DNA from: Dehalococcoidia bacterium
GTDB taxonomy: Bacteria; Chloroflexota; Dehalococcoidia; Lucifugimonadales; QGNO01
Direction of reading: 5' to 3'
Assembly: GCA_965248955.1 (NCBI GenBank)
Contig: OZ252212.1
Coordinates: 959,042 to 1,023,041, forward strand
Length of the DNA stretch: 64,000 nt
How positions within the stretch are numbered: the first letter of the stretch is position 1; each line of letters begins with the position of its first letter. Shown here in pieces: positions 3,344 through 28,374 of this stretch. Both the position numbers and the translations under genes were made by a program. The notes below the pieces were generated by a model. The model was not told the origin of the DNA and did not search any database. It saw only the letters and a list, made by a program, of their open reading frames with translations.

Positions 3344-3979
3344 ATGCAAAGATCGGACAGCGAGAATACCGCGCTCACACCACAGGAGAGCTGGCGAACG
3401 ATCCACGAGTCGATGGACAGATCCCGGAGCTCCATGTATGTCGCCGGGTCAGCGACGATATTGCTTTTATGGGCCTCTATTGTAGCGGTGGGATCCGGAT
3501 CTCAGTACGCCATCATAACGCTGGCATCCGAGTTCGCCGATCGCAACCCATGGATCTTCGGGGCACTATGGGGGGTCCTGATGGTGCCGGGCATGGTCGG
3601 GAGCGCGATCATAGGACGCCGCGCCGGCAGGAAGATCGCAGCCGGCGACGCCGCTCGCAGCGCTGGCATTCGGGTGTTCCTCTACTGGCTCGCAGTGGTT
3701 GTGGCGGTGTTCCTCATCCCGGCGGCAGCGGGAATGTGGAATGCCGAAGCCGGGGACAACATACCGGGCGTCGCCGTGGGCATAGTGTCCCTGGCATACA
3801 TCCTGTTCGGCATCATGCATCGCCCGGTGTTGGCGGCGGTGGGCGCGGGGTTCGCGGCAGCGTTCTACATTCCCAACTACCTCGTGGACGGCAACGAGGC
3901 TATGTTGGTGTCGGGGGCATTGATGCTGGTAGTGGTGGTCCTAGGTGCGTGGTGGATACGCACGAGCGGGGTCCATTGA
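3344..3979 (+). CDS. Hypothetical integral membrane protein
   Basis: 211-aa ORF with about five hydrophobic helices. It overlaps the start of the downstream wHTH regulator. Confidence 0.55.
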   Translation: MQRSDSENTALTPQESWRTIHESMDRSRSSMYVAGSATILLLWASIVAVGSGSQYAIITLASEFADRNPWIFGALWGVLMVPGMVGSAIIGRRAGRKIAAGDAARSAGIRVFLYWLAVVVAVFLIPAAAGMWNAEAGDNIPGVAVGIVSLAYILFGIMHRPVLAAVGAGFAAAFYIPNYLVDGNEAMLVSGALMLVVVVLGAWWIRTSGVH

Positions 3980-4290
3980 CCGACGAACCCATCGTCCTCG
4001 ACGAGACCATTCATCAGTCCACTCGGCTGCGAATAATGACTATGCTGGTCTCCCAGCCGGAAACGGGCCGGCTCGCCTACGGGTTCGTTCAGAAGACTCT
4101 CGACCTGACCGGGGGAAACCTGACCACCCACCTGCGCAAGCTTGAAGACGCCGGCTATCTGGTCATCACGAAAGAGTTCCAGGACTTGAAGCCGCGCACG
4201 TGGCTTAAGGCGACACCGATGGGACGCCGCGCATTCGCCGAATACCTCTCCAACCTGGAGAAGGCCCTGAGCTGGCAGCCTTGGGCATAG
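3949..4290 (+). CDS. Winged-helix transcriptional regulator (ArsR/MarR-like)
   Basis: The C-terminal ~113 aa of the 3337..4290 frame read as a wHTH: STRLRIMTMLV...LTGGNLTTHLRKLEDAGYLVITKE. A GTG start is available at 3949 or 3952. The upstream part of that frame is a shadow of the membrane protein ORF. Confidence 0.7.
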   Translation: MVDTHERGPLTDEPIVLDETIHQSTRLRIMTMLVSQPETGRLAYGFVQKTLDLTGGNLTTHLRKLEDAGYLVITKEFQDLKPRTWLKATPMGRRAFAEYLSNLEKALSWQPWA

Positions 4291-4315
4291 ACCACCCAGA
4301 ATGTACTGTGCCCAT

Positions 4316-4452
4316 GACTCCACCTGAGAAGGTTCGAACCGCTGATCAAAGCCCAGACTGCATACTAGTTGTCGATCCGCGTATACTTGGCTGCCGCATC
4401 CAAATCGACCGCCCACGAGTACCGCAGTTTTTCGTTGCGATCAATTCGTTAA
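4316..4452 (-). repeat. Dispersed repeat family, copy 1 (long form, ~135 nt)
   Basis: Plus strand reads ccacctgagaaggttcgaacc ... gtcgatccgc-loop-gcatccaaatcgac cgcccacgagtaccgcagtttttcg. A 37-nt stretch is identical to copy 2 in inverted orientation. It lies directly 3' of the agmatinase-family stop codon. Confidence 0.85.
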
Positions 4453-4469
4453 TCGTACAACAGGCGCGG

Positions 4470-5474
4470 CTACACCTTGACCGTGTCAAACAGCCAGGGA
4501 TGCAGGATCTTGAGCAGACCTGAGGCAGCAATCTTAACTGTCTGTGCAGAAGAGTCCCACTCGGGAGATACCTCGCAGAGATCAATCGCTCCCATAGCCT
4601 TGTAAAGGCTCAACATATCCATGGCCTCGAAGAACTCCGGCACGGTGATACCGCCAAACTCAGGGGCGCCGGTTCCCGGCGATTCATGGGCGTCTATCAC
4701 GTCGATATCAATGCTCACGTACACCGCGTCTACCCCGTCTGCCGCCACGTCCATGGCTTCCTTCATAACTTCGGCTATTCCTCTTTCACGGACACTCTTC
4801 GCCGTGAGCATCTTCAAGGAATGTTCCCTCTTTAGGCGGTGTTGGTCTATGGTTAACCCAGAATTGAGGCCGACCCAACTCAGGTTCTTATACGAGACTA
4901 TAGGATTCTCGCTTACGCGTCGCACCATTGTCCCGTGGTGGTATCGGCCTCCCAAAGAGTTGCCATCCTGAAAATCGGAATGCGCATCGATGTGGATGTA
5001 GCCGAGGCGTGCTCCTTCCGTTCTCTCGGCGATGCCTTTGGCGAATCCCTCAAAGGAGGGATAAGCAACGTAGTGGTCTCCTCCCATTACCACCGAAAAG
5101 CCGCCTCGTCTTACGACCTCGTACACTCCCTCCTTAACCGACTCCGTTGTCTTCATCAGGTCTGTGGGGTAGATGTTGAAATCACCAATATCCGCTATCA
5201 TGGGCAGGTTCTTGAGGTGGGTTCCAACCCCAGTATCCACATCCACTCGCGTGTTTTCCGGTGAAACGTCATAGCCTGCTCTGTTGTGCAGGGATGCCTC
5301 TCGAATGGACCTGGGGCCAAACCGGGCTCCAGGTCTTCCTGAGTATATCCCGTTGTCGATAGGCACCCCCGACACCACGGCAGTACCCTCAACGATTTCG
5401 TCGAACTCGACTTGGGGCGCTCGAAAGAAGGAGACGGGGCCCCCGTAATATGGCATGGCATCTCTCTCGTACAT
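4470..5474 (-). CDS. Agmatinase/arginase-family ureohydrolase
   Basis: 334-aa ORF with the Mn-binding motifs GGDH, IHIDAHSD and SIDIDVID. Confidence 0.85.
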   Translation of the reverse strand: MYERDAMPYYGGPVSFFRAPQVEFDEIVEGTAVVSGVPIDNGIYSGRPGARFGPRSIREASLHNRAGYDVSPENTRVDVDTGVGTHLKNLPMIADIGDFNIYPTDLMKTTESVKEGVYEVVRRGGFSVVMGGDHYVAYPSFEGFAKGIAERTEGARLGYIHIDAHSDFQDGNSLGGRYHHGTMVRRVSENPIVSYKNLSWVGLNSGLTIDQHRLKREHSLKMLTAKSVRERGIAEVMKEAMDVAADGVDAVYVSIDIDVIDAHESPGTGAPEFGGITVPEFFEAMDMLSLYKAMGAIDLCEVSPEWDSSAQTVKIAASGLLKILHPWLFDTVKV

Positions 5475-5800
5475 AAGGTCATCTCCCTTCCCTGTCCACT
5501 ATAGCGTCGAGTCCTGACATTAGCACCGGTAATTGGGCAGGGTCAACGTGGCTTGGGTCTGAAACTGCTGACATCTTGCGAGAAATAGTTCAGGTGGTGT
5601 CGTAGTTGGGCTGGCAGGACGTGAGGAAGCATCTCCCTGCATTGTGGTTAGACGCGGGGGATTGGCGCAGTTTCTGCGATGGACAGAACCATCTTCGAGA
5701 TGTGGATGGGGCTTTCAAGCCACCGACCCCCTGATTTCAATCATATTCGCATAGTTCGTACCCTAGACAGACGCAGGAAGCCGGAGGATCATCTCTCCAC

Positions 5801-7600
5801 TCAGTGGGAGAGGTGATCGGCTTCCTGCTCGCAGAAGAGCCGCCGCTCGCTTGGGTAAACGCCGTCAATCAGCACTCTGTGAACGTGGCTGTTAACGCAG
5901 TTATTCTGAGGGTAGACACCGTGCGAAAAGTGAGAGGTCTCCAGCAGATAGCCATTGCTGAGCGTGTCGGATACGAGCTCTTCGGATTCGCTGAAGGGAG
6001 TAAATGGATCGGAGTGGTTGCCGATCACCAGTATCGGCACTCCTCCACCGTCAAGAGGCACCTCCAGAGGGTCGGGGGCGAACTGGTCGTAGAACGGGCA
6101 GGGGCTGGGGAACTGGGGGTCTACTAACGCCAGTAAGGGGAACATTTCCTCTATAGTGGCGTTAATGACTACAGAGTCATCCAGCAGGGTGGTGCGGTCC
6201 AATTCCGGGTACAAGACCCAGTGATCCAGGCAATTGACGTGGGAAGTAAACCTTGCAGCCGTGGGTTCCGAGCCCAGTTGTATCCTGGCAAAATCTAGAA
6301 GAGTAGATGGGTCATCTCTCTCTTTGAGTTCAAACAGACCCCGCCACAGATCAGGCCATGTCTCTTCACTGTACAGGGTCGAGATCACCCCATAAAAGCC
6401 TGCCAGTGGATGATTATCCGCCACAGCATTGACAAGGCCCAGTTTCGCAACGGCCTGCCTGAAGTAGCCAACCGGGTCTCCGTCGTTGTATATGGGGCAC
6501 AGCGGATCAGTGCAAGCGATGAGCGCTTGTTCGAGAGAGTCTTCAATGGGTACGACCTCCTCGATTACCTCGTCAATCCGTTCCTGCTGAGTAGTGGCGG
6601 GGTCGACCGAGTTGTCGGCGCCGTCAACAACCATTGCCCTAACTGACTCGGGGAAGAGGGTTGCGTACCAGACCCCCAACGCCGATCCATAGGAGAATCC
6701 CAGGTAGGAGATCTGATCAGCACCCAGAGCCTTGCGTATTTCATCCATGTCTTTGGCGACGTATTGGCTGTGTAGCAGGCCGCCGATCGGCCCCATTGAT
6801 TGAATGCACAGGTTGGCCGCCGCTTCGCCGGCCGCTATCTCGTGGGGAGTATCTATGTTCCCGTCAATCGCGGCAAGCAGCCCTATCTGCTGACCGGGGT
6901 CGCCGCAGGCGAATGCAGGCTCGGACTCCCCTACCCCGCGTGGGTCGAAGCCGACGATGTCGAAGTGGGTGACGATTTCATCCGTGAACAGTCCGAATGG
7001 GAGATGGTGGACCAACTCTACACCGCTCGTGCCCGGACCGCCGGGATTAACGAACAGATAGCCTATCCGTTCGCGCGGCGACGTGGCTCGGTGCACGTTG
7101 ACCGCTATTCTGATGCTGCCTGCCTCTGGGTCCCTGTAGTCTGTGGGGACTTTTACAAATCCGCACTCGAGCTCGAATAATCCGCACCGGATCCAGTTTA
7201 TCCGCTCTCCTGCTGGGGTAGACTCAGGTTCGACTGCCGAGGTAGGAGCAGCTGGGAGAAGGGGTAGCCGAGTTGGCATTGGAGTAGCAGTTGGGTTGGA
7301 CGTGGGCATTGGAGTCGAAGCAGGTGTCGCCGTCGGCACCGCCGTAACCTCAGGCACTGGCGTGGGTGGCTGAGTTGGTGTTGGAGCAATGGACGGGACA
7401 GGCGAGGGCGTTTGGGTCAAAGCAAGTGTCGCCGTCTGCTCCGTGGTTAACTCCGGTATTGGTGTTTGAGATGGCTTGGGCATAGAGTCGCGACAGGCTA
7501 GATTAGCCGTTATAACCAGAGCCAAGATGCCGACGACGAAATACTTCTTCAATTCCTTACCCACAGCCTTCAGTGTCTCCTCTTCTTTGCAGCCCCGCAA
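5801..7600 (-). CDS. Secreted alpha/beta hydrolase (tripeptidyl-aminopeptidase-like) lipoprotein with Thr/Pro linker
   Basis: Signal peptide with lipobox ITANLAC, about 90 aa of TP-rich linker, and the nucleophile elbow GFSYGS. Confidence 0.75.
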   Translation of the reverse strand: MRGCKEEETLKAVGKELKKYFVVGILALVITANLACRDSMPKPSQTPIPELTTEQTATLALTQTPSPVPSIAPTPTQPPTPVPEVTAVPTATPASTPMPTSNPTATPMPTRLPLLPAAPTSAVEPESTPAGERINWIRCGLFELECGFVKVPTDYRDPEAGSIRIAVNVHRATSPRERIGYLFVNPGGPGTSGVELVHHLPFGLFTDEIVTHFDIVGFDPRGVGESEPAFACGDPGQQIGLLAAIDGNIDTPHEIAAGEAAANLCIQSMGPIGGLLHSQYVAKDMDEIRKALGADQISYLGFSYGSALGVWYATLFPESVRAMVVDGADNSVDPATTQQERIDEVIEEVVPIEDSLEQALIACTDPLCPIYNDGDPVGYFRQAVAKLGLVNAVADNHPLAGFYGVISTLYSEETWPDLWRGLFELKERDDPSTLLDFARIQLGSEPTAARFTSHVNCLDHWVLYPELDRTTLLDDSVVINATIEEMFPLLALVDPQFPSPCPFYDQFAPDPLEVPLDGGGVPILVIGNHSDPFTPFSESEELVSDTLSNGYLLETSHFSHGVYPQNNCVNSHVHRVLIDGVYPSERRLFCEQEADHLSH

Positions 7601-12668: not shown

Positions 12669-13844
12669 ATGGGTCCAACTCTGCCGAAGGATACTCAGTT
12701 CTATTTCCCTCCCGAGCTCACCTGCCTGGAGGGGATAGGCCATCTGGAGCCTGAAGAAACGGTGGCAGCGGTGGAGGTACATAACGGACGGTGGGGGTTG
12801 TCCGGCCACTCTCTGCAGGGTAACCGTTACCTCATCACCATTGAGGCGCCCGGTCTCCGTCTCGAGCCTGCGGGCTACGTGGCCGTGGTCTTCTCGAGCA
12901 AGACCCGCCATCGAGTGCGGGGCGTCGACTTCTATATTGGCGACGCGGAGGCGCCAGACTGCGATACTAGCCCAGGGGTTGTGGAACCTGCCGCCCGCGA
13001 GGCGCTGAGGAACATGGCCAAGGACCCCATGGCCCGTATTGCGGAGCAAGTCCCCGGATTTGGCGGGGCCTTTCGGGATTCGGACCAGAAGGTCGTGTAC
13101 ATCTACCTTCAGGATGCCTCCCTGAAAGAGGAGGCGGAGCGCGCTCTAGAGGAGGAGTTTGGCTCCGATTTCCTCGCGGGCCGCGAGGTCCAGGTCCTGA
13201 AGGGCGACTACAGCATGGACCACCTGAATGCTTGGTATAGGGCTCTGAGTGGTGCCATATCTCAGGTCCCAGGCATCGTGTACACCGACCTGGACGAGGG
13301 GAAGAACCGCATCGAGATCGTCATGTACCCACGGCGCGGGGGGCGCGAGGAGATGGAGGCTGCCATAGCGACGGTGGACGTCCCAAGGGGAGCCATCCTC
13401 ATCGAGGTCGGATGTGAGGGCAAATGGCCCCGTGACCTTGGGGAGCCTCCGGAGGAGGCGTTCCTCCAGGCCATCGAATACTCGCTGGAGGTGGTGTCCC
13501 AGGCCCCTTACGGAGAGACGGTGGAGATGAAGCTAACCTTGCGGAACGTCAGTGATGGGCCGGTGAGCTTTTATCTCGGGGGGTCGCCCGCCTATGACTT
13601 CGTGGTCTCGACGGCTGACGAAGAGTTGGTATGGCACTGGAAGTGCGCCAAGTTGACCCTCTTGATGCTGGGTATCAAGACCCTGGAACCTGGTGAAGAG
13701 TTGGGATTCGTTGGTGAGTGGGAACAGATAGACAACCGGGGGGAGCCCGTTCCCCCTGGCACATACCTGTTGCGTGCTGTGTTGAATTTGGAATCGCCGG
13801 AGAAGCTCGTAACCGAGGTCCAGAAGGTGGAGGTGGTCCAGTGA
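12669..13844 (+). CDS. Hypothetical protein with C-terminal BsuPI-like (protease-inhibitor fold) domain
   Basis: The C-terminal ~100 aa (LTLRNVSDGPVSFYLGGSPAYDFVV...LEPGEE...PPGTYLL) fit the BsuPI pattern. The N-terminal start is uncertain. Confidence 0.55.
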   Translation: MGPTLPKDTQFYFPPELTCLEGIGHLEPEETVAAVEVHNGRWGLSGHSLQGNRYLITIEAPGLRLEPAGYVAVVFSSKTRHRVRGVDFYIGDAEAPDCDTSPGVVEPAAREALRNMAKDPMARIAEQVPGFGGAFRDSDQKVVYIYLQDASLKEEAERALEEEFGSDFLAGREVQVLKGDYSMDHLNAWYRALSGAISQVPGIVYTDLDEGKNRIEIVMYPRRGGREEMEAAIATVDVPRGAILIEVGCEGKWPRDLGEPPEEAFLQAIEYSLEVVSQAPYGETVEMKLTLRNVSDGPVSFYLGGSPAYDFVVSTADEELVWHWKCAKLTLLMLGIKTLEPGEELGFVGEWEQIDNRGEPVPPGTYLLRAVLNLESPEKLVTEVQKVEVVQ

Positions 13845-17782: not shown

Positions 17783-18415
17783 TCATTTGATCCGAGGTAA
17801 TGGGGCGGTGTACTGCCCGATGCACCGTTGACTTCCTTCCCTGCGGGCGTGCCTCATCCGCACCTCGTCGGGCGCGAGGATGAGGACGGCGCTGGGGCGG
17901 GGCACATCCTCCCTGAGCCTCCAGAGCCGCTTGGAGAAGCTCGTCCTGTCGGAGGTGAGTCCCTGCCTGACGACGGCGACGGTTCGCCCGTCGGCCAGGA
18001 CGATAGCGGCGTCCATAGGCATGGCCCGGTACCAGCGGAACCGGATGGGGTGGGCGATGTTGGAGATAGTGGCAGCGAGCCGGTAGATGACTGCGGCGGC
18101 ATCCAGCCGCTCCAGCAGGACGCGCTGCCACCGGGCCGAGACGGGATAAAGTCTTAGGAGCTCGTCCACGGTCATGCCCTCGTCCCCGGCCAGCCGGTGC
18201 AGCCCAGATGGGGTGAGATAGAAGCGGCGCGTTGGCGGCGTGACGTCCGTGGCGTGGGGGACGGAGGCGGCGAGGCCCTCGACCTCAAATTTCTCGACGC
18301 TCTCGTAGACCGAGCCCCGAGACCAGCCGGAGACGGCGACCAGCTCCAGCCGGTCGAGAAAGGGCATGGCTGCCAGATGTCCCAGTAGCTCTTCCTGGCA
18401 CTCGGTGAGGGTCAT
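17783..18415 (-). CDS. Hypothetical wHTH protein (replication-relaxation-like, mobile-element type)
   Basis: 210-aa ORF. The N-terminal LLGHLAAMPFLDRLELVAVSGWSRGSVYESVEKFEVEGL...RRFYLTPSGLHRLA resembles MarR-like replication-relaxation proteins. The family assignment is tentative. Confidence 0.45.
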   Translation of the reverse strand: MTLTECQEELLGHLAAMPFLDRLELVAVSGWSRGSVYESVEKFEVEGLAASVPHATDVTPPTRRFYLTPSGLHRLAGDEGMTVDELLRLYPVSARWQRVLLERLDAAAVIYRLAATISNIAHPIRFRWYRAMPMDAAIVLADGRTVAVVRQGLTSDRTSFSKRLWRLREDVPRPSAVLILAPDEVRMRHARREGSQRCIGQYTAPLPRIK

Positions 18416-18633
18416 GCGCCCTGCTCCTCTTCAGGAGCGTCTTGCTCCTTCTTCGTCTCGGTTGCGCCAGCCGCCTTGTCCCGCTTGGTTCGCTGATTGC
18501 GCCGCTTGGAGGGCTTGTCCCGTTTCTTGGGAGCCGCGCCATTGCTGGGCGGGGTCTTATTGCCCCTCTCCAGGGCCGCAATCGCCGCCCGGTACTGCTC
18601 CAACAGCCGCTCCGTGCCCCAGGCGGCGTCCAT
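18412..18633 (-). CDS. Small basic/acidic-tailed hypothetical protein
   Basis: The stop overlaps the next gene's start (ATGA). I placed the start at the internal Met (MDAAWG) because the longer ORF, which runs to 18747, overlaps a better-supported HTH on the other strand. Confidence 0.3.
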   Translation of the reverse strand: MDAAWGTERLLEQYRAAIAALERGNKTPPSNGAAPKKRDKPSKRRNQRTKRDKAAGATETKKEQDAPEEEQGA

Positions 18634-18787
18634 TCTCAATGTGAGTGAGGAGACCGTTCGCCGGAACATCAGGTCGAAGCGCCTGGTGGCTTTGCGACGG
18701 GGAACCCAATGGTTTGTCCAGCACGCAGTCCTTGTGCGCTTCGCCAAAAACTATGATCCCAAGACGGGCAATATAAAGGAGGAGTGA
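18614..18787 (+). CDS. Excisionase-family helix-turn-helix DNA-binding protein
   Basis: 57 aa from a GTG start. PQAASILNVSEETVRRNIRSKRLVALRRGTQWFV fits the MerR-like excisionase HTH pattern. Confidence 0.5.
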   Translation: MPQAASILNVSEETVRRNIRSKRLVALRRGTQWFVQHAVLVRFAKNYDPKTGNIKEE

Positions 18788-18959: not shown

Positions 18960-20354
18960 ATGAGCAGCCACCGGACTGTGCCGATGCGCGATGATGCCTG
19001 GCGGGCCGGTGGTGACAACCTTGCGCCGACCCCCGTGACTGACTGGCCCCAACCCTGGTTGGGACGCCTGCTGCTCGTCTCCCTGCTGGTGATGCTGAAC
19101 CTGCCGATGACCTTCACCTTGATTACCCGAACAGACCCATACGGGTTCTTCGCACTGAAGTCCGTATCGGCCTATCCTCTGCCGCTGGTTCTGTCTACCG
19201 GACTGAGTTCGGCTCTTGCCTTGGTGGGGTACGTTTGCTATCGCTGGCTCCGGGGGCGACAGTGGTGGTTCACGGGAGGTCATTGGAGTCCGCTGACCAG
19301 GGGCGTGGTTTTGTGTGTTCCGCCTGTGCTTCTCGCATACCTACCGATCATCGTCCTATCGAGCCACGGGTGGAAGGGAACGCATCTGGCGTTGGGAGCG
19401 GTGATTGCCGGAGCGCTGTGCGTCATCCACGCCCTCAGAGACCCGGAGATGAGCCTTGATCCGGCTCAGGCTCGGTACTGGTTCATCTGTGCCCTGGGCT
19501 CGATCCTTGTGTTCCTCGTCCTCTGCATCGGCGCGATGGTCGTGCTGTACAAGGTCGAGCAGTTCCCCGCGTCCGGCAATATGCTGTGGACATGGGAATA
19601 CCGCTGGCCGGAACTGGGATATCCCCCCGAAGAGTATGACACCTGGCACCGCGACGGCCTCCTGGCCTTTACGGCGATAGGAGTGGCTTTCATGATCGCG
19701 GCGCTGGGTGGAAGCATGTTGGGGTCGATTCTAAGGTGGACGCGGTCGGCGGAGGGCGGCGGCATTGCCCGTCGTACACCGGCCACCAGGCAGCAGAATC
19801 CGGACGCACCTCCTTGGGTCGCCCGAATCGCTCGGCAGATTGAGTCCCTGAGCCCATCCACTGGGAATGAAGCGGAGTATGTCGCCGTGTTCAATGGGTA
19901 CGAGATTGAAATCACGGGCGGCCAATATCAGGGTTTGGTCGGTGCCAAGTTCGATTTGCTCCATGACGTTGACCTGCTTGTAGACAAGGCTGCTGGCAAC
20001 GTGTTCCTTCATACTGATGGGACGTGGGCCAAGCTCGACTTTCGCGTTCGCGACAAAGCCTCGGCCATCCGCAGCGGTCCCTTCTCCCTGTTGTGCATCT
20101 ACGCCCGCAGTCCCGGTAGGCGTTTCGCCAACGGCGAGTTGAGGACCCTTCTGGATAGGGAGTTAGGCAATCACGTGGAGCTCAATGTACGAGACTTCGT
20201 ATTTCAGCTTCAGAGGAGAACTCCCCGGCTGCCCGTAGGACGTGATGCAACGGGGTCTTTCTTGGACGCAGGGGCGAACGTGTGCTTCCTGGACCTGCAG
20301 CGATCGCCAACGGACAACGGCGGCGCTCAGGCCAACGGGCCGCAGCTCCTCTGA
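18960..20354 (+). CDS. Polytopic membrane protein with C-terminal OmpR/PhoB-type winged-helix domain
   Basis: About 270 aa with 6-7 hydrophobic helices. A cytoplasmic domain follows, ending in FSLLCIYARSPGRRFANGELRTLLD...NVRDFVFQLQRR (Trans_reg_C-like pattern). Confidence 0.55.
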   Translation: MSSHRTVPMRDDAWRAGGDNLAPTPVTDWPQPWLGRLLLVSLLVMLNLPMTFTLITRTDPYGFFALKSVSAYPLPLVLSTGLSSALALVGYVCYRWLRGRQWWFTGGHWSPLTRGVVLCVPPVLLAYLPIIVLSSHGWKGTHLALGAVIAGALCVIHALRDPEMSLDPAQARYWFICALGSILVFLVLCIGAMVVLYKVEQFPASGNMLWTWEYRWPELGYPPEEYDTWHRDGLLAFTAIGVAFMIAALGGSMLGSILRWTRSAEGGGIARRTPATRQQNPDAPPWVARIARQIESLSPSTGNEAEYVAVFNGYEIEITGGQYQGLVGAKFDLLHDVDLLVDKAAGNVFLHTDGTWAKLDFRVRDKASAIRSGPFSLLCIYARSPGRRFANGELRTLLDRELGNHVELNVRDFVFQLQRRTPRLPVGRDATGSFLDAGANVCFLDLQRSPTDNGGAQANGPQLL

Positions 20355-20697
20355 ATGCTGCTGTGCCATCGCTGGCAGCCGGGGCTAGTCGACGGGGTAG
20401 ACCCTCCGATGGAGATTTACCCCTCTGAACGCCTGCAGTTCTACGTTTTGCGACGTACACGCTCACTATCCGACGCCTACTCCACTAGGCAACTAGAGGA
20501 TCGCGCGAGAGAATGTAGTGTCGGGCGAGCGCAATTCGGAGAACCGGTCTGAAGGCCCGGCATGCGGGGTTAGGTCGCGGCCTCGCCCGCACCCATGTGC
20601 GGCCGCGGTAGACTTCGCCGGAGACGGCGGTCAGTTCCGGCCGGTACAGGAAGGGCACTAACGCAGGGTGCAGTAGAAGCTGGATGGAGGTAGGCGC

Positions 20698-21093
20698 TTG
20701 GCAAGTTGGCGAAGCTCTCTTGTGATGGCGGGGTTGACTGCGGCGGGCTGTAGCCTATTTGAACAGGACCGGGAGCCTTCTCCGGCTCCGACGGATGTAC
20801 CTACGCCACAGCTCACAGCTGATGTGCAGGGAGAGACCACACCCGAATCTGCGGAGGGGCTGGCTCTTCCTCGTGCAGCTCAGTATCAGTTCGTGGCCTT
20901 AGTGCCCGTCAGCGTTGGAGGAGCGCGCAAAACGTACCGAGACTTAGGGTGCACGCGATGCTCCAATGTGCTAGCAGATAGCCCATACCAAGAGTTTGTG
21001 CTAATTGGCGACCGCCTCTATGACGAGAGAAAGCCGCATGCCGAACGTGAGTTGGGAATATGGAGGGCAATTTGTATAAGGCGGCGCACATGA
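20698..21093 (+). CDS. Small hypothetical lipoprotein
   Basis: Lipobox LTAAGC. Its stop overlaps the ATG of the downstream giant gene (ATGA at 21090-21093), which suggests translational coupling. Confidence 0.5.
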   Translation: MASWRSSLVMAGLTAAGCSLFEQDREPSPAPTDVPTPQLTADVQGETTPESAEGLALPRAAQYQFVALVPVSVGGARKTYRDLGCTRCSNVLADSPYQEFVLIGDRLYDERKPHAERELGIWRAICIRRRT

Positions 21094-24000
21094 CACGATG
21101 GTTGGCTTACGGGATATTGACCGTTGCGCTCGCATGTCTTCTTGGGGGCTGCAACGGGGACTCAGGCGCACCTGAGCCAACCCCTACCGGAGCTGAGTCG
21201 AGGGGGCTCACGGCCACGACGGAACCGAGCTCCACACTGACGCCAGAACCAACCCCCACGGTGGAACCAACTCCCACACCGACGCCAGAACCAACCCCCA
21301 CGGTGGAACCAACTCCCACACCGACGCCAGAACCAACCCCCACGCCTACTCCAGAGCCTACGCTCAAACCCATCGATCCGAATCTATCCATCCTGGACCA
21401 GTTCCCAGCGATAGAGCGTAGCTGTCTGTTACTCGATATGGAAGAGAACCGCTTGTACCGGATCTTCAACCAGGAATCCAGTGCGACGGCCGAAGAATTC
21501 GAGGCCATAGCAGGTTGCATAAGCAGGGACACCGTGACCGCCATGTATATCGGTGCGCTTGCGGAGGGGTTGAGTGTGAGCGGCGAGACGTCGGCCTGTG
21601 CGGTGGGCCGACTGGAGAAGATGGACAAGGACCTCCTAATGCTAGCGTCGATAAACTCCGAGCATGAAACCGCGGTTTACCTTGGCCTTGGTTATGACGA
21701 TGAGGCGCTGCAAGACTTGGGGGCGTCTATTTCGTTGTCTGTGCTCCTCTGCATGGACAAGGAAGAGTGGACGGCCCTCAGCCCATGGGGTCTCAATGTC
21801 GATGATGTGAGCATAGATGCACTCAGATGCTTCCTGAACGAATTGGGGCCGCGGGGCCTCTACGAGTTGGATGCTGCTACCGAGGGCGCAACGCCATCGC
21901 TTGAGCTGTTCTCAGCGGCGGGGAGTTGCGGGATAGACCTGGAGTCGTTGCTGTCAAAACAAACGAGGCCAGAACCCGCACCGACGGTGAGGCCAGCAGT
22001 TCCCGTGCCAACCGCAACCCCCGTGCCGACGGCTGCACCACAGAGGGAACCCGAGGCGACTCCCACCGCAGCGCCAGCGGCTACGGCAGTACCAGAGCCC
22101 ACAGCTGCTCCGACCGCCACTCCAACGGACACGCCCGAGCCGACTCCTACGGACACGCCTACGCCCGCCGCAGTTGATAGGGCCGCGCTGGTGGCGCTCT
22201 ACGAAGCGACGGACGGAGCTAACTGGACGAGCAACCACAACTGGCTGAGCGACAGGCCAATCGGAGAATGGCGCGGCGTAATCGCTGACCTCAGCGGGCG
22301 CGTCACCGAGCTGCTCCTCTCTGAGAACCAGTTGAGCGGCGAGATACCGGCCGAGTTGGGCAACCTCGCCAACCTTCAATACCTGTTCCTCTCTAAGAAC
22401 CAGTTGAGCGGCGAGATACCGGCCGAGCTGGGCAACCTCGCCAACCTTCAATACCTGTTCCTCTCTAAGAACCAGTTGAGCGGCGAGATACCGGCCGAGC
22501 TGGGCAACCTCGCCAACCTTCAATACCTGTTCCTCTCTAAGAACCAGTTGAGCGGCGAGATACCGGCCGAGCTGGGCAACCTCGCCAACCTTCATTCCCT
22601 GCTCCTCTCTGAGAACCAGTTGACCAGGTGCCTACCCGAAGGGTTGCGAGAGATACAGGAAAGTGATTTCAACATCATGTCCATTCGTCCGCCCTTGTGC
22701 GGAACAACCCCGGCGAGCATGATCGCGGCGGGCGGCACAATCGCAGTCCTCCAGTCTCTTGAGTCACTGTCGGGCGCTCATCGGAGAGATGGCACAGAGT
22801 TTGAGTGGTCGCAGGTGTCGGGTCCGCCCGTTGAACTCCTCAATGCGAATGCTGAGTATGCTCGGTTCACGGCCCCGGTGGTCGTTGAAGACACCATCTT
22901 GGTGTTTGTGCTGAAAGCCGAATATCAGAACGACGTCACGGTGATCGATACTGTGCCGATACGCGTCGTTCCCATGAGAACGGAGAGGGTGTTGGCTGCT
23001 TTGGTGGACTTTCTTGACGTGGACCCCAGAGAAAGACCCTTCACCAGAGAAGATATCGTCAAGCTCCTTGAGGCTAATGACGATTCATTGAGCAATTTCA
23101 TTGCTCAGACCTCGCGCAATTTGGTGAGCGTTGACTTTGACGTCCTGGACTGGATCACTGTCGACAAGAACAGGACGGACTACCCGTTAGGTGGTGGCAC
23201 CGTGGTGAAGGACGTCGTCAGCAGGATGTCCGACTTTGCCGACTTGAGTCAGTATGACAAGGTGATGCCGTTAATCTTTCCTCTCGAAAAAGGATATCCC
23301 GGATGCCAGGCTTACCTGTATAAGGACCACTGGAACACGCCAAACGGCCGCTTCCGATTGGGTGCCTTGTGGCTGAGCGGCTATGACATGGGTTGTGTAC
23401 GAAAAGGTAGGATTGCACACGAGTTTGGACACACATTCGCGTTCGTACACTCATATGTGATTCTCTGCCACAGAGAGCCGCCCTTGCCGGCGAGCATGAC
23501 TGACCCCACTGACAAGAACAGCTCCTGCTATACCGTATATGCCGGGGAGAAAGAGGAAGCTAGCATTATCGCCAACCAAGACTTTGACATGCTGGGCGGC
23601 GACCATCGATACGAGAGCTTCTTTCCGGTTCACTTCCACGCAACATGGCAGGATCGAGCCGGATGGTTGGCCGAGGCCCAGGTCGTTGCTGCGAACAGCG
23701 CCGGCGAGTACTGGCTCACCGCTTTGGAATCCCTTACTCCCACACCGAAGGCTGTGAGGATATTCTTGGGAACCGATCACGAGGGAAACTCCCTATACTA
23801 TCTGATCCAACATCGTGAGTTCAGCCCGTGGTCCATGGGTAGCCAGGCGGGGTCTTCGTGCCAAGCCGATGTGAGGCTTGAAGCCTCCAACATATTTAAG
23901 CGTGGGCAATTCAATACTTACTTTTTCAATGGGTATATCGATGGCGTGAGAGTGGATTCCATATCACGCCCGGGTAAGCCGTTATGGGACCCTTACCGTG

Positions 24001-24425
24001 GCATTCGTATCGAAATACTTGACTGCATAGATACTCCAATAGGTGAGGTTGTCAGGATGCAAGTCAACTTTTCCAAACTGGATATTGACCCGCGGGTAGT
24101 CGCCATTTTCGATACTGCCGGAAAAGCGACGATAAAGATGACAAACAACGGCAGCGTACCGATTGACGTTGGCTCTGCCTCGATCGGGGGCAGACATCCG
24201 ACCGCATTTGTCGTTGATTCTGACGAATGCAGTGATTCCACACTGAAATCGAAAGCATCGTGCGAGATCATCCTGTCGCATGTCCCAACCGACACTGAGG
24301 ACGATGAACCCAGCAATCACGGTGTGTTGAAGATCCCGAACAATGACGCATTGGCACCCGAGATGACGGTGAGTCTATTTGCGGCGAATGCAAACCGATC
24401 ACAGCTTCCGCCGACCCGGAAGTGA
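21090..24425 (+). CDS. Large surface lipoprotein: Thr/Pro repeats, leucine-rich repeats, C-terminal HExxH metalloprotease-like domain
   Basis: Signal peptide with lipobox LLGGC and EPTPTVEPTPTPTP tandem repeats. NQLSGEIPAELGNLANLQYLFLSK occurs four times (plant-type LRR). IAHEFGHTFAF lies in the C-terminal region. I placed the start at ATG 21090; the ORF track uses 21060. Confidence 0.85.
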   Translation: MTRWLAYGILTVALACLLGGCNGDSGAPEPTPTGAESRGLTATTEPSSTLTPEPTPTVEPTPTPTPEPTPTVEPTPTPTPEPTPTPTPEPTLKPIDPNLSILDQFPAIERSCLLLDMEENRLYRIFNQESSATAEEFEAIAGCISRDTVTAMYIGALAEGLSVSGETSACAVGRLEKMDKDLLMLASINSEHETAVYLGLGYDDEALQDLGASISLSVLLCMDKEEWTALSPWGLNVDDVSIDALRCFLNELGPRGLYELDAATEGATPSLELFSAAGSCGIDLESLLSKQTRPEPAPTVRPAVPVPTATPVPTAAPQREPEATPTAAPAATAVPEPTAAPTATPTDTPEPTPTDTPTPAAVDRAALVALYEATDGANWTSNHNWLSDRPIGEWRGVIADLSGRVTELLLSENQLSGEIPAELGNLANLQYLFLSKNQLSGEIPAELGNLANLQYLFLSKNQLSGEIPAELGNLANLQYLFLSKNQLSGEIPAELGNLANLHSLLLSENQLTRCLPEGLREIQESDFNIMSIRPPLCGTTPASMIAAGGTIAVLQSLESLSGAHRRDGTEFEWSQVSGPPVELLNANAEYARFTAPVVVEDTILVFVLKAEYQNDVTVIDTVPIRVVPMRTERVLAALVDFLDVDPRERPFTREDIVKLLEANDDSLSNFIAQTSRNLVSVDFDVLDWITVDKNRTDYPLGGGTVVKDVVSRMSDFADLSQYDKVMPLIFPLEKGYPGCQAYLYKDHWNTPNGRFRLGALWLSGYDMGCVRKGRIAHEFGHTFAFVHSYVILCHREPPLPASMTDPTDKNSSCYTVYAGEKEEASIIANQDFDMLGGDHRYESFFPVHFHATWQDRAGWLAEAQVVAANSAGEYWLTALESLTPTPKAVRIFLGTDHEGNSLYYLIQHREFSPWSMGSQAGSSCQADVRLEASNIFKRGQFNTYFFNGYIDGVRVDSISRPGKPLWDPYRGIRIEILDCIDTPIGEVVRMQVNFSKLDIDPRVVAIFDTAGKATIKMTNNGSVPIDVGSASIGGRHPTAFVVDSDECSDSTLKSKASCEIILSHVPTDTEDDEPSNHGVLKIPNNDALAPEMTVSLFAANANRSQLPPTRK
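21243..21345 (+). repeat. 42-bp tandem repeat (about 2.4 copies) encoding PEPTPTVEPTPTPT
   Basis: ccagaaccaacccccacggtggaaccaactcccacaccgacg is repeated identically at 21243 and 21285, and a partial third copy follows. Confidence 0.9.
22317..22604 (+). repeat. 72-bp tandem repeat, 4 copies (LRR units)
   Basis: Units start at 22317, 22389, 22461 and 22533. Units 2 and 3 are identical over 72/72 nt. Units 1 and 4 differ at a few positions. Confidence 0.95.
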
Positions 24426-24485
24426 AGCCGATGCTCTCGGCCCATCGGGAGTCGAAGTTCCGGTGAGGATATTATCATTTATGTC

Positions 24486-24812: not shown

Positions 24813-25244
24813 GCCGAGTTCATGGCCGAGGAGCCGGTGAAGCCCAAGGGCCGGAGCCGCAATGGAGGCGTCTTTGCTCGAACTCCATGTCGCTGTGGCC
24901 ACTACGAGCCCTCCAACCCTGGCGGGCTGGAGGCTCGTGGGCCAAGCCGGGTACTGTGTGACTCGCGCCTGTTTTGTTACAGCGAGACCTCCCATCGAAA
25001 AGTTCGCAGTACAGTACACGTAGGCCCGCCAAGGAAGGCTCGAACCATCATGCGGTCCGACGTTGAGGTGGATTACCGGACATCGTGAAGAATGAGATGT
25101 TCTAGGGGCTCGACTGGAATCGGGTGTTACAGAGGCATGGAGCGTAGCGAGCACTAAGACCGACGGTATTGCCCTCACAGCGGTTGTATCGCTAGCCGTG
25201 ACCTTCACTTGCCCAAGGCTCTAGCGCTACCCATCGCTAGCTAC

Positions 25245-25285
25245 GCTCACCGCCCACGAGTACCGCATTTTCTGTTTCTATTGCC
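25245..25285 (-). repeat. Dispersed repeat family, copy 5 (core; long form about 25024-25290)
   Basis: ctcaccgcccacgagtaccgcattttctgtttctattgcc. It is preceded by a long-range stem (gagcgtagc...gctacgctc) and an outer box ccaaggaaggctcgaacc at about 25030. Confidence 0.75.
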
Positions 25286-25530
25286 TCTCACCCATGAGCA
25301 GTGGAGAGTAACATACGTGCGCATTGCGGGAGGAAGGCTGTGCTGGGGCAGCAAGCTGGATGGTCATGAAGCCTCGCCCGGAGAGGATTATAAGTTCACG
25401 TCCGTCAGCAGCAGCCGCTCTCACGGGTGCGTTTTGCGGGACGATGGCGCGGTCCAGTGTTGGCGATGGCCATAAACGAGGGAGCTGGAGTCGCTCTGGT
25501 TGGACCATGACATCGACAACGGTATTCAAG

Positions 25531-25570
25531 TTCACCGCCCACGAGCACCGCAATCTTCTGTGTCGTTGCC
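25531..25570 (-). repeat. Dispersed repeat family, copy 6 (core)
   Basis: ttcaccgcccacgagcaccgcaatcttctgtgtcgttgcc. Confidence 0.7.
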
Positions 25571-25783
25571 CTCAACACCGGATACCGGGTGGGCGGCGAC
25601 ACCGAGCGGACACGATTACCAGCGCTACCCACGCCGTAGACGAACTGGTGCGCAACACGTCTTATGAGTTCCGCGTGAGCGCATACGCGGACGGCGACAC
25701 CTACAAAGACGAGTAGGGTGGCGCAGAGGTATCCGCAACGACCGGAGTCTGAAGCTAAGCCCTAGAGAAGCGACTCTGCCCAT

Positions 25784-26007
25784 TCAGGGAATTAGCCGCC
25801 AACTCCAGTTCCACCACTCCCAGCGGCATCCAAGTCCACCGCCCAAGAGTACCTCAGTTTTTGTAGTCGATTGAGAAATGGGGATGGTGTATGTCAGAAC
25901 GGCCTCTTCTCCCACCACTTCGATGCCCTCCACGAAGTTGCGGATGAGCGCCTTGTGCTCAGGGAATGTCCCTTCCTTTAGAAACTCACGGAAGTCCGCC
26001 ACGTACC
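25784..26007 (-). pseudogene. C-terminal fragment of a large serine recombinase gene (copy A)
   Basis: YVADFREFLKEGTFPEHKALIRNFVEGIEVVGEEAVLTYTIP is the typical extreme C-terminus of large serine recombinases. No catalytic or zinc-ribbon part is present. Confidence 0.55.
25826..25875 (-). repeat. Dispersed repeat family, copy 7 (core)
   Basis: gcatccaagtccaccgcccaagagtacctcagtttttgtagtcgattgag. It overlaps the 3' tail of the recombinase fragment ORF. Confidence 0.75.
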
Positions 26008-26022
26008 TATTCACTAGTGGTG

Positions 26023-26341: not shown

Positions 26342-27376
26342 TTAGTTCGTAGCAGGACGCCCAGAGACGTCCACCTGGCCGTAGATATCCTCTAGGGCCG
26401 CAAATATCTCGGCTTGAATGCCATCTGCGCCTTCACTGTACAGGTCTTTGGGCCCGCCTATCTCGTTGTTCACCCCCAGGTAAGACTGCGACATCTCAGC
26501 AAAGAACTCCCGTCCGCCTTCCACCCTCATTCCAAATGCGTTCGGCCATAACCCGGCTTCCCGGGCCCTGCCATACAGCCCCAGCCACACTTGGCGAGTC
26601 TCATCATCGAATCCAAGGTTCTCAATGGCGTGGGCCCATTCGTGCACGGTAATATCCTCCGCCCAGAAACGGGTCTGGTCTTCAACCAAATCAAGCAGAT
26701 TTTCCTCTGAGGTCACGGTGGTGGTTTGCTCCGGAACGCCGCCTGCTCCCCGCACCCTGAACGAGTCGTACGGATTGCCGTTGAGGTCCAGCCTCCCTCG
26801 AAGGAACGCCAATTCCGGGATTTCGGTGATATAGCCGTCCTTGGGGATTATTGCCAGTGAGGCTCCCGCTTCCGCCATCCGCTGGGCGATGTCCGGCCGG
26901 TGGGACAGCATTGTGCGGACGATGTCGGCAGCGACCTCCAAGGCCTCTGGCGCCACCGCCCCGGAGGCCTTGACCCGAATGCCATCCACATCTACAACCT
27001 GTGTGTAGTACTGCCCAGGAGTAGCCGTAGGCGCGGAAGCAGGCGTGGGAGTTGGAGTGACAGTCGGAGTCGGTGTTGCCGTAGCTGTAGGGTCAGGAGT
27101 GTTGGTTGGTGTAGGTGTTGCAGTAGGCGTAGGAGTAGGAGTAACAGTTGGCGTCGGTGTTGCCGTAGCTGTAGGGTCAGGAGTGTTGGTTGGTGTAGGT
27201 GTTGCAGTAGGCGTAAGAGAAGAAGGAAGAGATGCAGGTATAGTTAGAGTTACGTCAGGTGTCGGTACAGGGACTTCAGACTCCCTACTTTGGTAACAGG
27301 CAGCCGATGCTGCTAACGCGAGCAGTGCTAGCGCAGTGTTCCTTATCCCAGCTCCGCTCAACCAGCGGGGGTTCAT
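26342..27376 (-). CDS. Secreted lipoprotein with Thr/Pro linker and HExxH zinc-metallopeptidase-like domain
   Basis: I placed the start at MNPRWLSG. Lipobox ASAAC, a duplicated TP-rich linker, and VHEWAHAIEN in the C-terminal domain. Confidence 0.7.
   Translation of the reverse strand: MNPRWLSGAGIRNTALALLALAASAACYQSRESEVPVPTPDVTLTIPASLPSSLTPTATPTPTNTPDPTATATPTPTVTPTPTPTATPTPTNTPDPTATATPTPTVTPTPTPASAPTATPGQYYTQVVDVDGIRVKASGAVAPEALEVAADIVRTMLSHRPDIAQRMAEAGASLAIIPKDGYITEIPELAFLRGRLDLNGNPYDSFRVRGAGGVPEQTTTVTSEENLLDLVEDQTRFWAEDITVHEWAHAIENLGFDDETRQVWLGLYGRAREAGLWPNAFGMRVEGGREFFAEMSQSYLGVNNEIGGPKDLYSEGADGIQAEIFAALEDIYGQVDVSGRPATN
27045..27220. repeat. 84-bp tandem duplication inside the Thr/Pro linker coding region
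   Basis: gtcggtgttgccgtagctgtagggtcaggagtgttggttggtgtaggtgttgcagtaggcgta occurs at 27069 and again at 27153. Confidence 0.85.
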
Positions 27377-27484
27377 TTTTACCTCGTATAAAACTAAGGT
27401 CACGTCCCATAGAGTGGTGTAAGAGTACGTCATCCTGTTGATATCGTCTAGGCCGCTGCCTCTGCGAGTTCAGCTCTGGGTAGA

Positions 27485-28374
27485 GGAGCGTAGCGAGCAC
27501 TAAGACCGACGGTATTGCCCTCACAGCGGTTGTATCGCTGGCCGTGACCTTCATGCCCAAGGCCCTAGCGCTACCCATCGCTAGCTACGCTCACCACCCA
27601 CGAGTACCGCATTTTCTGTTTCTATTGCCTCTCACCCATGAGCAGTGGAGAGTACCATACGTGCGCATTGCGGGAGGAAGGCACTGTGCTGTGCTAGGGC
27701 AGCAAGCTGGATGGTCATCAAGCCTCGCCCGGAGAGGATTATAAGTTCACGTCCGTCAGCAGCGGCCGCTCTCACGGGTGCGTTTTGCGGGACGATGACG
27801 CGGTCCAGTGTTGGCGATGGCCATAAACGAGGGAGCAGGAGTCGCTCTGGTTGGACCATGACATCGACAACGGTATTCAAGTTCACCGCCCACGAGCACC
27901 GCAATCTTCTGTGTCGTTGCCCTCAACACCGGATACCGGGTGGGCGGCGACACCGAGCGGACACGATTACCAGCGCTACCCACGCCGTAGACGAACTGGT
28001 GTGCAACACGTCTTATGAGTTCCGCGTGAGCGCATACGCGGACGGCAACACCTACAAAGACGAGTAGGGTGGCGCAGAGGTATCCGCAACGACCGGAGTC
28101 TGAAGCTAAGCCCTAGAGAAGCGACTCTGCCCATTCAGGGGATTAGCCGCCAACTTCAGTTCCACCACTCCCAGCGGCATCCAAGTCCACCGCCCAAGAG
28201 TACCTCAGTTTTTGTAGTCGATTGAGAAATGGGTATGGTGTATGTCAGAACGGCCTCTTCTCCCACCACTTCGATGCCCTCCACGAAGTTGCGGATGAGC
28301 GCCTTGTGCTCAGGGAACGTCCCTTCCTGTAGAAACTCACGGAAGTCCGCCACTTACCTATGCACTAGTAGGTG
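27485..28374. repeat. Direct repeat B (~890 bp), partner of 25139-26022
   Basis: See repeat A. It contains family copies 8-10 (cores at 27590-27629, 27882-27921 and 28177-28226). Confidence 0.9.
28156..28353 (-). pseudogene. C-terminal fragment of a large serine recombinase gene (copy B)
   Basis: MADFREFLQEGTFPEHKALIRNFVEGIEVVGEEAVLTYTIP. A stop codon immediately upstream replaces the Tyr codon seen in copy A. Confidence 0.55.

Follow-up and report, generated by a model that had tools for sequence, protein, structure and literature searches.

What protein is encoded by a reading frame of more than 3 kb in which near-perfect 72-bp repeats precede an HEFGH motif, and does the small open reading frame (ORF) just upstream belong to the same system? 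The question is posed by a locus of a Dehalococcoidia bacterium (GenBank assembly GCA_965248955.1, contig OZ252212.1, positions 959,042 to 1,023,041, forward strand). The whole 64,000-nucleotide stretch is termed the window, and positions are given within it. The large gene at 21060 to 24425 is interpreted, with a probability of about 0.6, as an intact gene for a membrane-anchored, outward-facing lipoprotein that joins a leucine-rich repeat (LRR) module to a metzincin protease, and that is chimeric and repeat-variable. Related loci in other genomes are designated L001 to L017.

Architecture of the large lipoprotein gene

The reading frame is unbroken across 3.36 kb, and its codon score (0.128) and third-position G + C content (GC3, 0.66) are gene-like. 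The parts of the gene are as follows.

21060 to 24425, plus strand: large lipoprotein gene, from the ORF scan; 1121 amino acids from the ATG at 21060 or 1111 amino acids from the ATG at 21090
21090 to 21152, plus strand: signal peptide with lipobox (…ALAC16LLGGC21), by the PROSITE pattern PS51257
21153 to 21368, plus strand: threonine/proline (TP)-rich linker 1, with 42-bp repeats; homology to L004 stops inside it, at about 21228
21369 to 21953, plus strand: all-alpha domain with six invariant Cys (Cys6 domain); AlphaFold2 pLDDT 77, helices throughout
21954 to 22175, plus strand: P/T/A-rich linker 2; homology to canonical Dehalococcoidia LRR-protease genes starts inside it, at 22092
22176 to 22310, plus strand: LRR N-terminal cap (DRAALVALYEATDGANW…GRVTE); the same cap stands before every LRR module of the relatives
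22311 to 22670, plus strand: five 24-residue LRR units on 72-bp repeats, from the repeat finder and Pfam LRR models
22599 to 22703, plus strand: last LRR unit and two-Cys C-terminal cap (LTRCLPEGL…PPLCG), conserved in all LRR-bearing relatives
22704 to 22979, plus strand: PKD/Ig-like domain; Pfam K319L-like_PKD over residues 560-626, E 8e-4, below the cut-off
22980 to 23657, plus strand: metzincin-type catalytic domain, from the AlphaFold2 model, Foldseek and the family profile
23418 to 23450, plus strand: zinc site HEFGHTFAFVH with H777, E778, H781 and H787, from the family alignment
23580 to 23603, plus strand: candidate Met-turn D-x-D-M834-L-G-G-D, from the family alignment
23682 to 24089, plus strand: beta-sandwich domain after the catalytic domain, from the secondary structure of the AlphaFold2 model
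24099 to 24386, plus strand: C-terminal Ig-like domain of PapD/MSP/ASH or choice-of-anchor-D type; NCBIfam NF012200, E 0.004

An initial annotation of this DNA had the large gene coupled to the small ORF by an ATGA overlap. The ATG at 21090 does overlap the TGA of the small ORF in this way, but the extension MEGNLYKAAHM from the ATG at 21060 is kept in both L004 and L005, where the gene caller picked that start; with it, the two frames overlap by 34 nt and not as ATGA. Judged from the sequence, the start codon is ambiguous between 21060 and 21090. The lipobox described earlier is found again, as PS51257 matches both C16 and C21 in the 1111-amino-acid form (a pattern match alone), and L004 carries a canonical LAGC at the equivalent of C21. 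By this pattern the product is a predicted bacterial lipoprotein. The 42-bp TP-rich repeats were likewise recovered by Tandem Repeats Finder, at 21232-21344 (2.7 copies, 98% matches).

Relatives of the Cys6 domain are stand-alone lipoproteins consisting of a signal peptide, a PT linker and the Cys6 domain. The domain has no Pfam or PHROGs match, and its model has no structural relative among the PDB entries (top Foldseek match at E 1.5). The Pfam family K319L-like_PKD is also precomputed for several relatives of the large protein. At the carboxy end, the Ig-like domain has Foldseek matches to VesB/VesC Ig, PapD and MSP domains, and the corresponding region of the relatives gives ASH and HYDIN_VesB Ig matches. 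The HEFGH motif, which had been assigned to a C-terminal domain, is present at residue 777, but this is about 330 residues before the C-terminus and two beta-domains follow it.

The protease module

The domain around HEFGH had been proposed to be a metalloprotease, and several lines of evidence agree. Residues H777, E778, H781 and H787 are invariant in all 25 aligned family members. The family consensus is HE[YF]GHTFGFVH; the window protein has HEFGHTFAFVH. The motif Gly is found in 23 of the 25 and Ala only in the window protein among them, while the L005 allele, which lies outside this alignment, also has Ala. A DxD-M834-LGGD block, in which D831, D833 and G836 are invariant and M834 is present in 20 of 25, is situated 47 residues after the third His and represents a candidate Met-turn. 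An AlphaFold2 model built on the family alignment (pLDDT 86.8, pTM 0.86) has as its four top PDB matches only Bacillus anthracis InhA2 (4yu5/4yu6; Foldseek E 6e-9 to 5e-8, probability 1.00), with TM-scores of 0.34-0.37 in the top matches over the multi-domain model. These are followed by matches of PapD, MSP and VesB-Ig type for the last domain. The family profile matches astacin (E 0.018), snake-venom metalloproteinase and MMP-20 around the zinc motif, the last two more weakly, and distant family members reach the Pfam Reprolysin_4 cut-off. A PDB search with the C-terminal half as a single sequence gave noise only. Taken from alignment, profile and model, the assignment as a predicted zinc metalloprotease domain is supported.

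No curated Pfam or NCBIfam family model reaches its threshold on the window protease module. Residues 630-1111 have no covering Pfam family and no Peptidase_M6 match at E <= 0.1, and the M6 domain model TIGR03296 scores 25.3 bits over residues 639-787 (E 1.2e-5) against a cut-off of 110.8. Metzincins share the motif HExxHxxG/NxxH/D and a Met-turn, and an Asp as third zinc ligand marks the snapalysins and thuringilysins, InhA family (PMC12237041). On the model, the module is a metzincin with an M6 enzyme as its nearest solved structure; it is not placed within M6, because the family-model score is below threshold and the third ligand is His787 and not Asp.

Compared with the M6 InhA/thuringilysin enzymes (InhA2, PDB 4YU5/4YU6; Vibrio PrtV), the window module appears alike in fold (Foldseek E 6e-9) and in being part of a secreted or surface zinc endopeptidase of several domains, with beta-domains behind the catalytic one. 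Vibrio PrtV also joins its protease with PKD domains. The differences are that thuringilysins have Asp as third ligand whereas the window family has His (HExxHxxGxxH), and that InhA lacks the lipoprotein anchor, the LRR module and the Cys6 domain of the window protein. With the other metzincins, i.e., the astacins (M12A), adamalysin/reprolysin-like enzymes (M12B) and matrixins (M10), it shares the extended HExxHxxGxxH motif, and with the matrixins also a Ser after the third His of the window family. It departs from them in having Ala for the motif Gly, and its Met-turn is read only from the DxDMLGGD block.

Among 5.8 billion proteins searched, 52 relatives were recovered. None has a Pfam match on the protease module, and every named relative of the module is annotated as a hypothetical protein. 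Among the best 150 matches of a profile search of 1.84 billion representatives, there are about 40 full-length clusters at 50% identity; thousands of further matches are confined to the Ig or PKD portions of the profile. By source, the relatives are identical to the window protein to the following extent.

Dehalococcoidia metagenome-assembled genomes (MAGs): 86-88%, with one at 61%
Vicinamibacterales MAGs: 41-55%
Candidatus Rariloculaceae MAG: 44%

A metzincin family that had been without annotation is thus delineated, with members on chromosomes of at least three phyla (the chromosome scan covered one genome per species). The module is also found in short contigs binned as Gammaproteobacteria and Acidobacteria. 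JGI metagenome contigs, when scanned with the cap, PKD-like and catalytic region, gave no close relatives. Separately, the 541-amino-acid members in L015, L016, L017 and the P0045 cluster are at least 90% identical, yet are binned as Acidobacteria, Rhodospirillales, Gammaproteobacteria and Vicinamibacterales. These near-identical members across lineages may be mis-binned short contigs or may reflect very recent transfer.

The LRR array and its 72-bp repeats

A repeat of period 72 extends over 22311-22623 (4.3 copies, 97% matches, Tandem Repeats Finder score 577). The units at 22383-22454 and 22455-22526 are identical at the nucleotide level; relative to this pair, the unit at 22311 differs at 3 bases and that at 22527 at 2 bases. 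Self-comparison at an offset of 72 bases is exact for 166 bases, which gives a perfectly periodic tract of 238 bp. Four plant-type LRR units, two of them identical, had been reported: the 72-bp units and the identical pair stand, but there are five LRRs when the cap-proximal unit is counted. The array is framed by the N-cap and the two-Cys C-cap. LRR models of Pfam match above their cut-offs, with 57.4 bits for LRR_1 (cut-off 20.6), 45.1 for LRR_8 (27) and 43.3 for LRR_14 (40); LRR_4 also matches.

Each 72-bp unit codes for LxxLxLxxNxLSGxIPxxLGxLxx, which is the consensus of the plant-specific LRR class. The agreement in length and at every position was read by eye and not with a class-specific model. 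The plant-specific class is one of eight LRR classes (PMC5976695). The likeness includes the presence of an N-terminal cap and a two-Cys C-terminal cap. The window array differs in being bacterial and in having an N-cap that does not display the Cys pair of the plant LRRNT; there is also no Pfam LRRNT_2 match in the window protein. With the internalins and Leptospira LRR proteins, the common feature is copy-number variation by recombination between near-identical repeat units, but these proteins differ from the window protein in LRR class, in mode of anchoring and in the fused enzyme. Weak NCBIfam matches of the LRR region to InlA and to the LIC_11051 family are far below the cut-offs and come from the repeat motif only.

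LRR copy number varies between alleles

The closest allele of the large gene is that in L005; in the 1.4 kb that follow the repeats, its identity to the window is 98.7%. A single full LSGEIPAELGNLANL unit accompanies the cap unit in this allele, whereas the window has four plus the cap, a difference of exactly 3 x 72 bp. The single unit of L005 is a hybrid that begins like window unit 1 and ends like unit 4; together with the 216-bp difference, this fits one unequal exchange that removed or added exactly 216 bp. Other relatives also vary. The protease-proximal module has 2 LRR units in L005, 4 in L003, 5 in both the window and L006, 6 in both L007 and L008, and 10 in L010, and the counts among Dehalococcoidia relatives at 86-90% identity are 4, 5, 6, 6 and 10. 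The number of LRR modules per whole gene ranges from 1 to 4, and the L010 array has internal two-unit duplications.

The comparison shows that the three near-identical 72-bp units evidently come from recent unequal recombination or slippage, so that LRR number varies between alleles. The earlier proposal of a recent expansion and a variable LRR copy number holds between close alleles (5 units in the window against 2 in L005, and 4-10 in other relatives); an invariant repeat number is not what the relatives display, their counts being 2 to 10. Repeat-variable LRR surface proteins are already well known, as are modular secreted metalloproteases. What is provided here is a clean natural case of LRR copy-number change between near-identical alleles.

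The L005 locus has two further peculiarities. A 730-bp stretch of the gene (end of the Cys6 domain, linker 2 and LRR) is present twice, at L005 6066-6795 and 8238-8970, flanking a Transposase_mut insertion sequence (IS) that lies within the LRR cap unit. With 2x coverage of the contig, the duplication may be real or an effect of assembly.

Chimeric origin of the gene

Two sets of relatives match different parts of the locus. DNA homology to the canonical genes of L001-L003 covers only 22092-24465, beginning within linker 2 and extending 40 bp beyond the stop codon. This 3′ cassette is about 90% identical to a gene in a conserved Dehalococcoidia block that consists of a trypsin-PPC lipoprotein, a PQQ propeller, the LRR-protease, a 410-amino-acid lipoprotein and a 176-amino-acid lipoprotein (L001-L003, L006-L008 and L010). 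None of the trypsin-PPC, PQQ propeller, 410-amino-acid and 176-amino-acid lipoprotein neighbours is found in the window. On the other side, homology to L004 covers only 18612 to about 21228, which includes a 464-amino-acid gene, the small ORF, the signal peptide and the start of linker 1. Beyond about 21228, L004 encodes an AhpC/TSA-like domain and an HEHGH domain. Both homology junctions lie within linker-coding DNA. At the level of sequence, these comparisons show the gene to be a recent chimera in which the canonical 3′ cassette was placed behind another export signal and a Cys6 lipoprotein domain. It provides an example of domain shuffling at low-complexity linkers.

The positions of the junctions inside linkers point to linker-mediated recombination. 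It might further be proposed that, in these Dehalococcoidia, recombination within P/T-rich linker DNA allows surface cargo to be exchanged in the manner of cassettes, with the lipoprotein export signals ahead of it conserved. This proposal has three observations behind it: a shared 5′ module, made up of the gene for the 464-amino-acid membrane protein, an optional small-ORF segment and the signal peptide, precedes the LRR-metzincin in the window and L005 and a thioredoxin-fold/HEHGH protein in L004; the two homology junctions of the chimera are both within linkers; and the small-ORF segment, identical in two otherwise diverged loci, acts as a separately moving unit. The proposal is tentative and is considered doubtful at present. 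If true, linker exchange and unit-by-unit LRR expansion would constitute a two-level diversification of the symbiont surface proteome.

One neighbour accompanies this 5′ context throughout.

18960 to 20354, plus strand: gene for a 464-amino-acid predicted membrane protein, the sole neighbour conserved in all three loci of this 5′ context

The 464-amino-acid protein is 95% identical in L004 and 82% identical in L005, and has no Pfam, NCBIfam, PHROGs or PADLOC match. It is predicted to be multi-pass with a soluble C-terminal half, and is kept whatever cargo follows. In L004 the gene that follows the small ORF (3401-5206) encodes a 601-amino-acid lipoprotein whose signal peptide is the same as that of the window large gene; its cargo is an AhpC/TSA (thioredoxin-fold) domain and a second, different HExxH domain (HEHGH). 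A DDE transposase follows it.

LRR and protease modules are linked by fusion and adjacency

One fused gene encodes both the LRR and the protease module in the window, L001-L003, L005-L008 and L010. L009 has the sole unfused arrangement, while elsewhere in Dehalococcoidia the modules are fused. There, a 330-amino-acid LRR-only lipoprotein gene (4251-5243) is found directly upstream of a protease lipoprotein gene (approximately 5377-7416), and the signal peptides of the two (MKGELEMTGSLTGIRW…LSACG) are nearly the same. Modules that are fused in some genomes and adjacent in another show a classic sign of joint action, and the arrangement in these loci thus suggests that the LRR and protease modules act together. 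It supports a role of the LRR as the putative targeting or substrate-binding domain of the protease.

A mechanism can be outlined from these features. The lipid anchor and the long spacers would keep the protein tethered to the cell surface. The LRR arc would bind a protein target, presenting it or keeping the enzyme beside it, and the HExxHxx(G/A)xxH site would cleave the LRR-bound target, which is probably a host or extracellular-matrix protein. We infer surface display with LRR-guided proteolysis of an external, possibly host, protein.

Eukaryotic-like proteins of the LRR class have been reported for sponge-associated SAR202 and Caldilineae Chloroflexi, and such LRR proteins are postulated to mediate host-microbe interaction (PMC6306507). 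The window protein resembles these sponge-symbiont proteins in that tandem LRR proteins of Chloroflexota are concerned, but its LRR is fused to a protease and lipid-anchored, and would be a targeting module and not a stand-alone mimic. A sponge origin is plausible in view of bin names and the literature on LRR proteins of sponge Chloroflexi, although the bin names themselves gave no match in a literature search. With a protease tied to LRR by both fusion and adjacency, some bacterial eukaryotic-like LRR proteins acquire a testable role, that of targeting domains of a surface protease.

The small upstream open reading frame

The features upstream of the large gene are as follows.

20520 to 21055, no strand assigned: 0.54-kb segment with the small ORF, present in the window and L004; about 20 bp are found instead in L005
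20617 to 20682, minus strand: 22-codon relic like the N-terminus of the 210-amino-acid replication-relaxation-like gene (direct repeat D7)
20686 to 20690, plus strand: GGAGG Shine-Dalgarno-like site, 7 nt before the TTG at 20698
20698 to 21093, plus strand: small ORF, 131 amino acids, TTG start; lipobox at Cys18, followed by a P/T-rich stretch and roughly 85 residues that include 3 Cys

The small ORF has no homologue among the 5.8 billion proteins except one identical copy, no match in Pfam, NCBIfam, PHROGs or PADLOC, and no occurrence in JGI metagenome contigs by a 30-nt exact scan. Its only other occurrence is in L004, ahead of the gene with the AhpC/TSA-like and HEHGH cargo. L005 does not have it, with some 20 bp in place of 20520-21055, and nor does any of the 15 other protease-family loci (L001-L003 and L006-L017). 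The initial annotation had called for a check of the co-occurrence of the 131-amino-acid partner in homologous loci; it is not conserved beside protease homologues. This absence, and the unrelated cargo in L004, argue that there is no conserved two-gene system.

Over 583 bp (20526-21108), the window and L004 do not differ at a single site; on either side, they differ at 2-14 sites per 100 bp. By sequence comparison, the segment looks recently acquired or exchanged. Since no convincing terminal repeats were found around the 0.54-kb segment, it is not called a mobile element.

Is the small ORF a gene? It is judged fairly likely to be expressed, and if so it may be an orphan lipoprotein rather than a partner dedicated to the protease. 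The opposite reading, that it represents a chance open frame on a rearranged scrap of mobile DNA between the 464-amino-acid gene and the lipoprotein gene, is a serious contender, although it is not the favoured one. The codon score is about 0, compared with 0.13-0.27 for 16 reference genes, and GC3 (0.54-0.56) is below that of all 16 (0.60-0.78) and within the range of spurious ORFs, of which those of at least 100 amino acids are common at this G + C content. The lack of homologues and of any difference from the L004 copy would fit as well, as would the nature of the segment as an insertion or deletion relative to L005. The relic of a mobile gene, 16 bp upstream on the opposite strand (tblastn 14/22 residues identical, E 1e-4), agrees with it also. 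Yet the frame scores best of the six, its stop codon overlaps the next start, and GGAGG is ideally spaced ahead of the TTG. Such a site at this spacing is expected by chance in about 1% of cases, and many confident genes of the window have similar ones. Moreover, the lipobox is followed by a P/T-rich stretch, as in other lipoproteins of this genome. The PS51257 lipobox (Cys18) is present only with the TTG start at 20698; the 122-amino-acid form chosen by the gene caller in L004 does not have a signal peptide.

Alternative readings of the locus

Several points weigh against the interpretation of the large gene as an intact, LRR-guided surface protease. The association with a host or sponge is taken from MAG naming and background knowledge, and proteolysis and its target are deduced from sequence and model. 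The candidate Met-turn was read from the alignment, and TM-scores to InhA2 are low (0.35 and 0.25), which is attributed to the comparison spanning several domains. The window is the lone case among the 25 aligned proteins with Ala at the conserved Gly of the zinc motif, and both the window and L005 are without a Cys-rich loop found in most relatives. By these two changes, activity could be weakened. IS elements and frameshifts interrupt the closest allele, L005, and the chimeric lineage may be decaying. Finally, the unit count in the 238-bp perfect tract is the value given by the assembly.

Some of these points would suit a second explanation of the large gene, in which recombination within a mobile-element-rich island produced a non-functional gene that is becoming a pseudogene. 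In addition to the splitting of the L005 allele by IS elements and frameshifts, the Gly-to-Ala change in the zinc motif and the loss of the conserved Cys-rich loop, pseudogene fragments and a 0.89-kb direct repeat are found just downstream. However, the window reading frame is unbroken for 3.36 kb with gene-like codon score and GC3, it retains the four catalytic residues and 58 positions that are invariant in the family, and some of the L005 frameshifts may be errors in a contig of 2x coverage. Decay of the window gene is therefore regarded as unlikely.

Less likely again is that the perfect 72-bp units are an artefact of assembly, the reads being shorter than the repeat and the copy number wrongly estimated. 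The perfectly periodic tract, at 238 bp, does exceed typical short reads. On the other hand, the array is in frame between intact N- and C-caps, unit 1 and unit 4 each have their own junction-specific differences, and independent contigs and complete MAG chromosomes carry the same module with 2 to 10 units, including the internal duplications of L010.

The earlier suggestion of a translationally coupled two-component surface system, in which the small lipoprotein would serve the large protease as chaperone, inhibitor or anchor, can draw on the ATGA overlap with the ATG at 21090, the GGAGG 7 nt ahead of the TTG, the PS51257 lipobox of the TTG-start form and the position of the L004 copy directly ahead of a lipoprotein gene with the same signal peptide, but is abandoned as very improbable, for the ORF has no homologues, is missing from the closest protease allele (L005), from L001-L003 and L006-L017 and from the JGI contigs, precedes unrelated cargo in L004 and has a codon score no better than that of spurious ORFs.

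Mobile surroundings and neighbouring genes

No tRNA and no Rfam family was found in the window. A role of the locus in anti-phage defence was considered and dropped. IS elements are present beside or inside related genes in L002-L005, and genes of mobile type are also found upstream of the large gene: the region 17.8-18.8 kb of the window has HTH_17 excisionase-like and replication-relaxation-like genes.

17783 to 18415, minus strand: 210-amino-acid replication-relaxation-like gene, resembling the Replic_Relax protein of L001

This product is 36% identical to the L001 Replic_Relax protein. The pair of replication-relaxation-like and HTH_17 genes is near the LRR-protease gene both in the window (17783-18787) and in L001 (19946-22250). 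L001 is an otherwise unrelated canonical locus, yet it has the same mobile-type gene pair within a few kilobases.

Eight kilobases upstream, at 12669-13844, the window encodes a 391-amino-acid protein with a BsuPI (intracellular proteinase inhibitor) domain. Downstream, the two copies of the 0.89-kb direct repeat (25139-26022 and 27485-28374) are 96.9% identical and contain frame-broken RCC1_2- and fn3-like fragments. They bracket a gene on the minus strand (26342-27433) whose 363-amino-acid product belongs to no Pfam or NCBIfam family and displays an HEWAH motif and a TP-rich linker with 42-bp repeats of its own.

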